Origin: Felis catus
Taxonomy: Eukaryota
Assembly: GCF_018350175.1 (NCBI RefSeq)
Contig: NC_058368.1
Location: 63,490,001-63,554,000, forward strand
DNA: 64,000 nucleotides
Direction of reading: 5' to 3'
The notes beneath the pieces are model-generated. The model saw nothing but the letters and a program-made list of their open reading frames with translations. It had not been told where the DNA came from and ran no database searches. Both the position numbers and the translations under genes were made by a program. Positions 44,771-47,354 of the stretch are shown one piece after another. Position 1 is the stretch's first letter, and each line of letters begins with the position of its first letter.

Positions 44771-45040
44771 CCCACATGGCCCTTCGAGGTGCTGCCGTCG
44801 CCGCCCGACCTGCGCCTTCGCGCCACTTCGCGCCCTCGGGCGAGGCCGAGGGGGTGGGGACGACCCCCGCCGCGTAGTCGCGGCTCGCGCCCCTCGCGAA
44901 GCTCCTTGGCGGGGCCGGCCGGTCGGCCGGCCGCACCCCCGGCCTGGGGCCTCCGGTCGTAGTAAAGCGGAGGCGGGTGGGGAGGCGGGAGCGAGAGCCC
45001 GCGGCGGGCGAGGCGAAGATGGTGGCGGCTACTCCTCCTG
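44766..45040 (+). ncRNA. MIR17HG: MIR17HG exon 1 (start inferred from the Inr)
   Basis: Strong donor CTG|GTGAGT at 45040/45041; YY1-like AAGATGGTGG at 45016. Confidence 0.7.
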
Positions 45041-46227
45041 GTGAGTCTGCCCGCCCCTCCGCCGAGTGAGTGAAACCTGTTGTGTGCGGCCCCAGTCCGG
45101 AGGGAGGGCGGGCGGGCGGGTGGGGCGGAATGGCCCGGGGCAGCGTGGCGGCGGCGGCGTGGCCGGGGGCCGGGGCGGGTCTCGGGCCGTTGGCCGCCCC
45201 TGCGTGTGGCAGCGGCGACTCGCTGCCCCCTCGCTTGCTTGCGGGCTGGCGGAGGGGCAGGGCAGGGCCGGGGAAGGGAGGGTGGGAGGGGGCGGCGTGC
45301 GCGAGGCGGCCGCGCCCGGGACCCGCGCGGACCCTGCTTGGGCCGGCCCCGGCGGGCGGGTGGGCGCGCGGCGCACACAATGGCCCCTCAGGGAGGGTAC
45401 GCGCGAGGCCCGCGCCCCTTCCAGGGCTCGGGGTGCACGCGGGGCGCGGGGTCCCCGGGAAGGGAAAGTTTCTCCTGGGGGCGAGAGTTAAAGCGCTTCC
45501 AGAACAAAGCGGCGGCGGCAGCGGCACATGGGGCAGGCCGCGGGCCGGGAGGGGGCGCGCCCACGAGGTACCTGCGCGCTGGCGGGCGGCGTGGCGTGGG
45601 CGGGAGCCCGCGGGCCCCCAAACTTTGTACGCGCGAGGGTGGGCGGAGGGCGCGGGAGCTCGGGGCGGCGCGGCCTGGACGCCACCCCCACTCCGCGTGG
45701 GCTTTGTTAACCCGCGTGGGCAGTCCCGGGTGGGGCTCGCAACTTCCCGGGCCGTGGCCCGCGGAGCAGGCCCTGGCCGGCCTCGGTGACGGCGTGGAGC
45801 CGCCTTTGCCCGCCCGCTGGCGGGGAGCGCGGCGCGGGAGGGCCGGCCCGGCTCGGCGGGAGCGGCGGCCGCGCCGCCATATTCCTGCGGGGCGGGCTGC
45901 GCGGGGGTGAGGGCGGGGGACATGGCGGCGACTGCGCGCCGCCGCCGATTGTTCCCGGCTTAGGCCTCGGGCCGCGTGCGACGGGCACCGCAGTCGCGGA
46001 GCCCCCGCCCCTCTGGGCCGGGCTGGGGGGGGGGGGGCGGGGGACACAAAGGAGGGGCGGCGCGCCCGCGTCCCCGCCGCGCTCGGGCCTCGGCGCCGCC
46101 GGTCGCCGCGCGGCTGCCGCCGGGAAACGGGGTGGGGGGGTTGCCGCGTCCGGCAGGGCCCGACTCTGACCCACCGCCCCCTGGCGGCCGCTCGCGAAAC
46201 CGCAGGGCCATGCACCCCCTTGTGCGA

Positions 46228-46233
46228 CATGTG
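46228..46233 (+). promoter_or_regulatory. Non-canonical MYC E-box CATGTG in intron 1
   Basis: CATGTG ~1.49 kb upstream of pre-miR-17, matching the recalled position of the known conserved MYC-bound site of this locus. Canonical CACGTG also occurs at 46830 and 47325. Confidence 0.7.
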
Positions 46234-46824
46234 CTGCCGGCCCGGGCTCCATGAGCGAGGCGGGCACTTTGCAGTCTCGAGCGTTCCTGCTCCCTTTTCT
46301 ACTCCTTAGCCGGAGCAAAGGGGACGGGAACTGGAGAAGGCAGACTCTTTCCTGCAGTATCGCCAAAAGAAAAAATTACCAACATGCCATCCGACCACAT
46401 CACTTGAGGAAACAACTCTTTATCCCGGCTTGCAGCCACGAGGTCTTGGATGGGGGAGGGGTGGTAAAGAATAGTCCCTTTGCTGCTGCTGCTTTTCCCT
46501 CTCATTAGAACTGTACAGTAAAGGATTGCTGTGGATCATACTGGAGTATTTCAGGATCTTTTTAAATAAGACATGAATTTAATACCTGTGGGTTTTTCAA
46601 CTTTATTCTCTTATACGTTTACACTTCTATACATTGTTGGTCTTTTAAACATTGCCAGTGTTGCTTGGCTATGTTATCCTCGTTTTGGCAAATGAATGTA
46701 ACTAATTGATACAAGAGCGTTAGAAATAAGCAAATTTAAATTTAAGTATGGGTTTGGAGGGTGATAATAATTTTCAGCAAATATGTTTGTCTTTTATCCC
46801 TGTCTCCCCACCCCCCCAACCCAG

Positions 46825-46896
46825 TCATACACGTGGACCTAACTGCACCAAAAGCTTTTCTAAGGATACTTGCAAGAAGAAAGTTTTCCCTAGTGG
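46825..46896 (+). ncRNA. MIR17HG: MIR17HG exon 2 (72 nt)
   Basis: Pyrimidine tract plus CCCAG| acceptor at 46824; TGG|GTAAGT donor at 46897. Confidence 0.8.
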
Positions 46897-47285
46897 GTAA
46901 GTGTATTCTAATTCTTTTTGGTTAACTTTTTATTTAAAACAATTTTTTTTTATTTTAATCATTTGAGTAAAATGGGATTGGGTTTTCAAATAGTGAAATA
47001 GGTATCTTGTATTTTGTTCACTTACCTTTTCTAAAAAATTAACTCTGTGGCCAGCTAATTTTTAAGTTAAAGTACAATGCAAATACCATAAAAATCTTTG
47101 GAAACTGTTATGCAGTTTATAAAATGTAATTTTAGAACTGCTTTAAGTTGGGTGATAAAGTAGATCTAATTTGGAGTAAGTTTTCAAGGTTCAAAACAAT
47201 TTAAACAGGATATTTAAGTTCTATAACAAGTTAATAACACTTGACATGTAGTCTGAAAGGTAATTTTGTTAATTGATTTGCCAAG

Positions 47286-47354
47286 TATTTGCTAATTGGA
47301 AGCCAGAAGAAAAAAATGTTTTGCCACGTGGATATGAAGATTTCCTCTAAAAAG
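47286..47354 (+). ncRNA. MIR17HG: MIR17HG exon 3 (short form; read-through would give the intron-retained, cluster-containing isoform)
   Basis: TTGATTTGCCAAG| acceptor, weak AAG|GTACAT donor, and similarity to recalled human MIR17HG exon sequence (TATTTGCTAA...TTTTGCCACGTGGAT). Confidence 0.6.

Follow-up and report, generated by a model that had tools for sequence, protein, structure and literature searches.

The spliced 52-codon reading frame at the 5' end of MIR17HG is probably an incidental, non-conserved short ORF

The closest described system for short reading frames at this locus is the human host gene of the miR-17~92 cluster, C13orf25 or MIR17HG, for which Ota et al. (2004) reportedly predicted polypeptides of 32 aa and 70 aa; later work is said to have treated these polypeptides as non-conserved. 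The available parts of published reports describe MIR17HG as non-protein-coding (PMC3824591; PMC7073466), place miR-17~92 in the third intron of the host gene, and state that the growth effect of the cluster was not reproduced when the C13orf25 'coding region' was introduced (PMC1959363). The same spliced host RNA is also the source of lnc-17-92, a miRNA-independent lncRNA product of MIR17HG, whose role as given in the available part of a review is to link MYC and WDR82 on chromatin as an RNA scaffold, with no peptide involved (PMC10618328). A further point of comparison is MIR22HG, which occurs six times in the available part of the GENCODE Ribo-seq ORF table, where supplement file 2 characterises its entries as young de novo ORFs with negative PhyloCSF (PMC10032668). 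We analysed a 64,000-nt stretch of Felis catus DNA (hereafter the window), in which a 52-codon ORF is formed by splicing three segments upstream of a microRNA cluster. Like this ORF, the MIR22HG lncORFs are short ATG-initiated ORFs that run across the exons of a miRNA host gene. Unlike it, they have ribosome-footprint support, whereas the same human table, in the part of the PMC10032668 supplement available, has 0 rows under MIR17HG or its Ensembl identifier, with chr17 rows present.

The original prediction had assigned the host transcript to MIR17HG, and the Rfam results agree. Six hairpins scored above the gathering thresholds on the forward strand, belonging in succession to RF00051, RF00051, RF00245, RF00051, RF00245 and RF00464 (three RF00051, two RF00245 and one RF00464). 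They follow the order miR-17/18a/19a/20a/19b-1/92a-1 within about 800 nt, as in the miR-17~92 cluster. A search of metagenome contigs and genome contigs with a 23-base stretch of miR-17 returned 0 loci in each. A CpG-island promoter and short exons were located upstream of the hairpins, with a GC content of 0.72 and a CpG observed/expected ratio of 1.06 over 44700-45040, and a GC content of 0.80 with a ratio of about 1 over 45041-46250. Three candidate exons with GT/AG sites, placed from sequence only, were located 5' of the cluster. The features on which the analysis relies are as follows.

44706-45018, forward strand: conserved promoter/exon-1 leader block 5' of the ATG, with upstream ATGs at 44706, 44712 and 44776.
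45016-45024, forward strand: candidate YY1-like core AAGATGGTG that overlaps the start codon, the sole AAnATGGnG match on this strand in 44000-47000.
45019-45040, forward strand: first ORF segment (22 nt) at the 3' end of exon 1, consisting of the ATG, six further codons and 1 nt, with the donor ctg/GTGAGT at 45041.
46825-46896, forward strand: exon 2 (72 nt), with a strong C-rich acceptor ending in CCCAG and the donor tgg/GTAAGT at 46897.
46830-46835, no strand assigned: candidate E-box CACGTG from a motif scan, in the conserved 5' part of exon 2 (His-Val codons).
About 46875-46882, forward strand: purine run with a frame-shifting indel between the window and all six other sequences, the base being placed from protein sequences only.
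47286-47354, forward strand: putative exon 3, drawn from the DNA itself, with the ORF running to 47350, the TAA at 47348-47350 and a weak donor aag/GTACAT at 47355.
47674-47700, forward strand: alternative acceptor tttag/cag/ a short way 5' of pre-miR-17; the sheep model's last exon maps here.
47723-48502, forward strand: miR-17~92 cluster, six hairpins with Rfam gathering-score hits of 68.5-91.2 bits.

Several side observations concern the same region. On both strands, the CpG island (44319-46252) carries many long ATG-initiated ORFs, among them one of 404 aa on the minus strand (44709-45923) and one of 280 aa (45388-46230); Ala, Gly, Pro and Arg abound in their translations. Such ORFs are the chance expectation because the DNA is about 80% GC and stop codons are scarce. 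The GC-rich intron 1 also includes a run of about 11 G at 46020-46031. Elsewhere in the window, weak tblastn matches at 2538-2615, 8527-8592, 14507-14566 and 41201-41257, on both strands, have in common the translated motif ELSAQSP..GSNSQT, which suggests that they may be copies of one interspersed repeat family.

The ORF was built exactly as had been proposed. Joining 45019-45040, 46825-46896 and 47286-47350 gave the expected 52 residues followed by TAA, with GT/AG present at each boundary, and the ATG at 45019-45021 lies in the strong context GCGAAGATGGTG (A at -3 and G at +4). The acceptor of exon 3 is weak, a purine-interrupted tract ending in AAG (GATTTGCCAAG directly before 47286). Exon 2 with its flanks is single-copy in its own genome (1 match in 2.43 Gb, 71 contigs) and is open in two of three frames. 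When the ATG was held fixed and exons 2 and 3 were dinucleotide-shuffled, 701 of 20000 shuffles (3.5%) stayed open for at least 52 codons and 4163 of 20000 (21%) stayed open through exon 2. The 52-codon ORF is somewhat long and not remarkable, since it was chosen after the fact. A separate ATG in exon 3 opens a 16-codon ORF in the third frame (47316-47363), which runs through the exon-3 donor into the intron before its stop. The 70-aa human 'putative MIR17HG protein' of UniProt presumably starts at a place similar to the 47316 ATG and, if so, is not preserved here.

The position of the stop codon bears on RNA turnover. Nonsense-mediated decay (NMD) acts when the stop precedes the last exon junction by more than about 50 nt. 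The TAA lies 4 nt before the exon-3 donor, so the argument that the spliced RNA would escape this rule is arithmetically correct for the predicted isoform as drawn, and a short ORF coupled to NMD would need a more distant stop than that isoform offers. The frame of the other species, when continued into the window's exon 3, meets a stop after two more codons, giving 34 codons in all.

We then compared the ORF with proteins from other species, using as query the 59-residue stop-to-stop frame around exon 2 (46746-46922). Two of the six sequences recovered are spliced models, both of them NCBI predicted proteins: P0005 (KAM7238045.1, hypothetical protein CapIbe_011003, Capra ibex, 67 aa) and P0008 (LOC132657304, uncharacterized protein, Ovis aries, 146 aa). 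The remaining four (P0003, P0004, P0006 and P0007) are unspliced translations from Logan/ENA contigs. A HMMER library search matched P0003 and P0004 and no others, and a search for shorter proteins, covering 30-31 aa only, gave no match. Both spliced models cross the exon 1-2 junction. The seven exon-1 residues open P0005, followed directly by exon-2 residues, and lie internally in P0008; these two predicted proteins indirectly support exon 1-2 splicing across species. The exon 2-3 junction with the acceptor before 47286 is used by neither model (0 of 2; ibex and sheep). Nothing in the 64-kb window matches the 35-residue ibex tail significantly (best E 0.49, opposite strand), and the tail of P0008 aligns to 47663-47700, beside pre-miR-17. 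Joining the window's exon 2 to the acceptor at 47674-47700 would give ORFs of 48 or 49 codons with yet another tail. The three isoform models therefore end in three different C-termini: the window's exon 3, an unrelated ibex tail, and the sheep acceptor next to pre-miR-17.

Within the exons that these sequences have in common, the window agrees with the others up to a defined point. Codons 1-22 are identical in both spliced models, and codons 8-22, the first 15 residues from exon 2, are identical in all six non-window sequences, whereas the intron just upstream of exon 2 differs by substitutions and indels. After the residues AFLRI, all six (P0003-P0008) read FAEKEVFPSG and the window reads LARRKFSLV. 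The last five residues of FAEKEVFPSG match the other open frame of the window (KKKVFPSG), so that the difference is a frame-shifting change of length within the window's purine run at about 46875-46882. The ibex and sheep proteins thus resemble the window ORF in their start residues, their exon 1-2 junction and their first 22 residues, and differ from it in frame from codon 25 on and in their third exons. The bovid-type frame, read to the end of exon 2, comprises exactly 32 residues; this equals the size reportedly predicted for one of the human C13orf25 polypeptides by Ota et al. (2004), which is a fit and not a test. The window reads another frame after codon 24 and reaches 52 codons via exon 3.

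These comparisons set limits on what had been proposed for the ORF. Exon 2 had been called frame-neutral, which is right for this species (72 nt) and does not hold across mammals, because all six other sequences shift frame inside the exon. A conserved N-terminus joined to a lineage-specific C-terminus was borne out, in that codons 1-22 are common to ibex and sheep and the remainder is frame-shifted. The suggested functional micropeptide found no support, given the frameshift in exon 2 against 6 of 6 other sequences, a kind of change named in the original prediction as grounds for refuting it. A micropeptide calls for frame and residues preserved between species, and here 22 of the 52 residues are common to the others and 30 are lineage-specific. 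Public protein records already include the ORF start with its first 22-32 codons, and the 52-codon form is a species-level frameshift variant.

The unspliced sequences bear on how this difference arose. P0004 and a 50-codon ORF of the window (46748-46900) have equivalent starts and ends, and their frames differ across the exon-2 core only, a pattern consistent with an exonic indel plus a second one in the C-tract of the intron. Over the last few residues before exon 2, the P0004 group is closer to the window than P0003 is, and both P0003 and this group carry the FAEKEVFPSG form. This weakly suggests that the window form may be the derived one; as the named sources are Caprinae only, no direction is claimed.

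The conservation of the start codon was next set against that of the DNA around it. The sheep model LOC132657304 starts at an ATG equivalent to 44706 in the window and reads through the whole leader, aligning to 44706-44930 in one window frame (85.7% identity) and to 44911-45018 in the frame of the ORF, where 35 of 36 residues are identical and the shared start follows directly. In the window, this leader frame is interrupted by a stop at 44875-44877 with no in-frame ATG after it, so the 36 leader codons lie outside the window ORF. Since 35 of these 36 untranslated codons are conserved, the conserved start appears as part of a promoter/exon-1 block and not as a property specific to the ORF. 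A transcription start as far 5' as that implied by the sheep model would put three ATGs ahead of 45019. From the ATG at 44706, a spliced ORF of 138 codons can also be drawn in the window (44706-45040 + 46825-46896 + 47286-47295); it uses the other open frame of exon 2 and ends in exon 3. From the equivalent ATG, LOC132657304 enters the frame of the 52-codon ORF instead, via leader indels.

Candidate DNA motifs fall within the same conserved parts. The ATG overlaps AAGATGGTG at 45016, which we take to fit the core of the YY1 consensus, consistent with the YY1-like motif proposed at this position. The E-box in exon 2 (46830-46835) has a second candidate counterpart, CACGTG, in exon 3 (47325-47330). 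Both E-boxes could provide non-coding reasons for constraint. A related CATGTG occurs in intron 1 (46228-46233), about 1.5 kb upstream of miR-17-5p, presumably the same distance as the human MYC site. The earlier suggestion that the ATG could be conserved without translation is favoured by the equally conserved leader (35 of 36) together with the E-box in exon 2, as judged from these alignments and motifs.

Published and database evidence on translation was assessed in parallel. Human MIR17HG is among six ribosome-associated lncRNAs in the available part of one report, which followed up only HCP5 (PMC11633528); in the available results of a literature search on MIR17HG ribosome profiling, this was the only report bearing on translation. 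A search on MIR17HG and nonsense-mediated decay gave nothing relevant among the matches listed, as far as those sources were available, and searches for peptide words and for a C13orf25 polypeptide gave no match. PMC13347947 contained no MIR17HG peptide, and its supplements had 0 occurrences of MIR17HG. A single MIR17HG sORF is included in the library of PMC11929002; it was considered as a possible record of this ORF and rejected, because its guides target the miR-17 hairpin and it is thus a different ORF. Pfam assigned 0 families to the five proteins searched (two exon-encoded pieces, ibex, sheep and P0003).

Control of RNA fate by a short 5' ORF has been proposed for other small-RNA host genes. 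In MIR17HG, the act of translation alone might likewise matter, with the ORF determining how stable the spliced host RNA is, or whether it ends up in the nucleus or the cytoplasm, while the peptide drifts. We regard this as unlikely. It would suit the strong ATG context, an ORF start kept in ibex, sheep and the window while the tails vary, and the listing of MIR17HG among ribosome-associated lncRNAs (PMC11633528, available part). It would also give meaning to the position of the stop, which precedes the last drawn junction by 4 nt in the window and by about 59 nt in the 34-codon frame of the other species, so that frame could change NMD sensitivity. However, it depends on a predicted isoform in which three upstream ATGs may come first, MIR17HG is absent from the available part of the human Ribo-seq ORF table (0 rows; PMC10032668), and the promoter block explains conservation of the start equally well. 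A functional micropeptide, with an active conserved N-terminus of 22 residues (32 in the bovid form) and dispensable lineage-specific tails, is in our view highly improbable. The identity of codons 1-22 in both spliced models and of codons 8-22 in all six sequences, beside a diverged intron, would be expected of it, and the 32 bovid-type residues agree with the size reportedly predicted for the human polypeptide; but the non-ORF leader is equally conserved, and the E-box and YY1-like core fall in the conserved parts. The absence of a Pfam family, of literature matches for peptide words and of MIR17HG rows in the available part of the Ribo-seq catalogue (PMC10032668) also speaks against it, as does the lack of a growth effect of the C13orf25 coding region in the available text of PMC1959363. 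We give very little credence to a related possibility, in which the 22-residue core common to the window and bovids would be a real translated module of the oncomiR-1 host gene whose tail can be changed by frameshift or by alternative 3' exons.

The explanation that we consider probable is that the ORF is incidental, a short and non-conserved frame at the 5' end of the lncRNA spliced from MIR17HG. It builds on what was observed directly, namely the sequence itself, the shift in frame, and an untranslated leader that is conserved to the same degree. The ATG sits in a strongly conserved promoter-proximal exon-1 block with its YY1-like core, and the first 47 nt of exon 2 are conserved as well, with the E-box, so that the first 22 codons may look conserved with no requirement for translation. 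A one-base length difference in the purine run of exon 2 then places the window species in a frame other than that of the recovered mammals, and the shifted frame happens to stay open through the weak exon 3, giving 52 codons. The peptide would have no function of its own, and any passage of ribosomes would be the usual low-level translation of a 5'-proximal ORF in a capped lncRNA. Some evidence runs against this incidental reading: coding constraint would likewise give 15 identical codons beside a diverged intron, the ORF is longer than 96.5% of the shuffles, and two annotation pipelines have called proteins that include this start. The strong ATG context counts on the same side, and a transcription start 3' of 44776 could make this ATG the first AUG; so does the ribosome-associated listing of MIR17HG in the available part of PMC11633528.

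MIR17HG is among the most studied oncogenic non-coding loci, and a conserved peptide encoded there would, if true, change the reading of knock-downs and amplifications of the locus. The evidence points the opposite way, since the frame differs between species and the conserved start lies within a promoter/exon-1 element. These results advise caution, in that frame conservation or ribosome footprints are needed before a spliced ORF of a host-gene lncRNA, or a 'hypothetical protein' that an annotation pipeline derives from one, is labelled a micropeptide.
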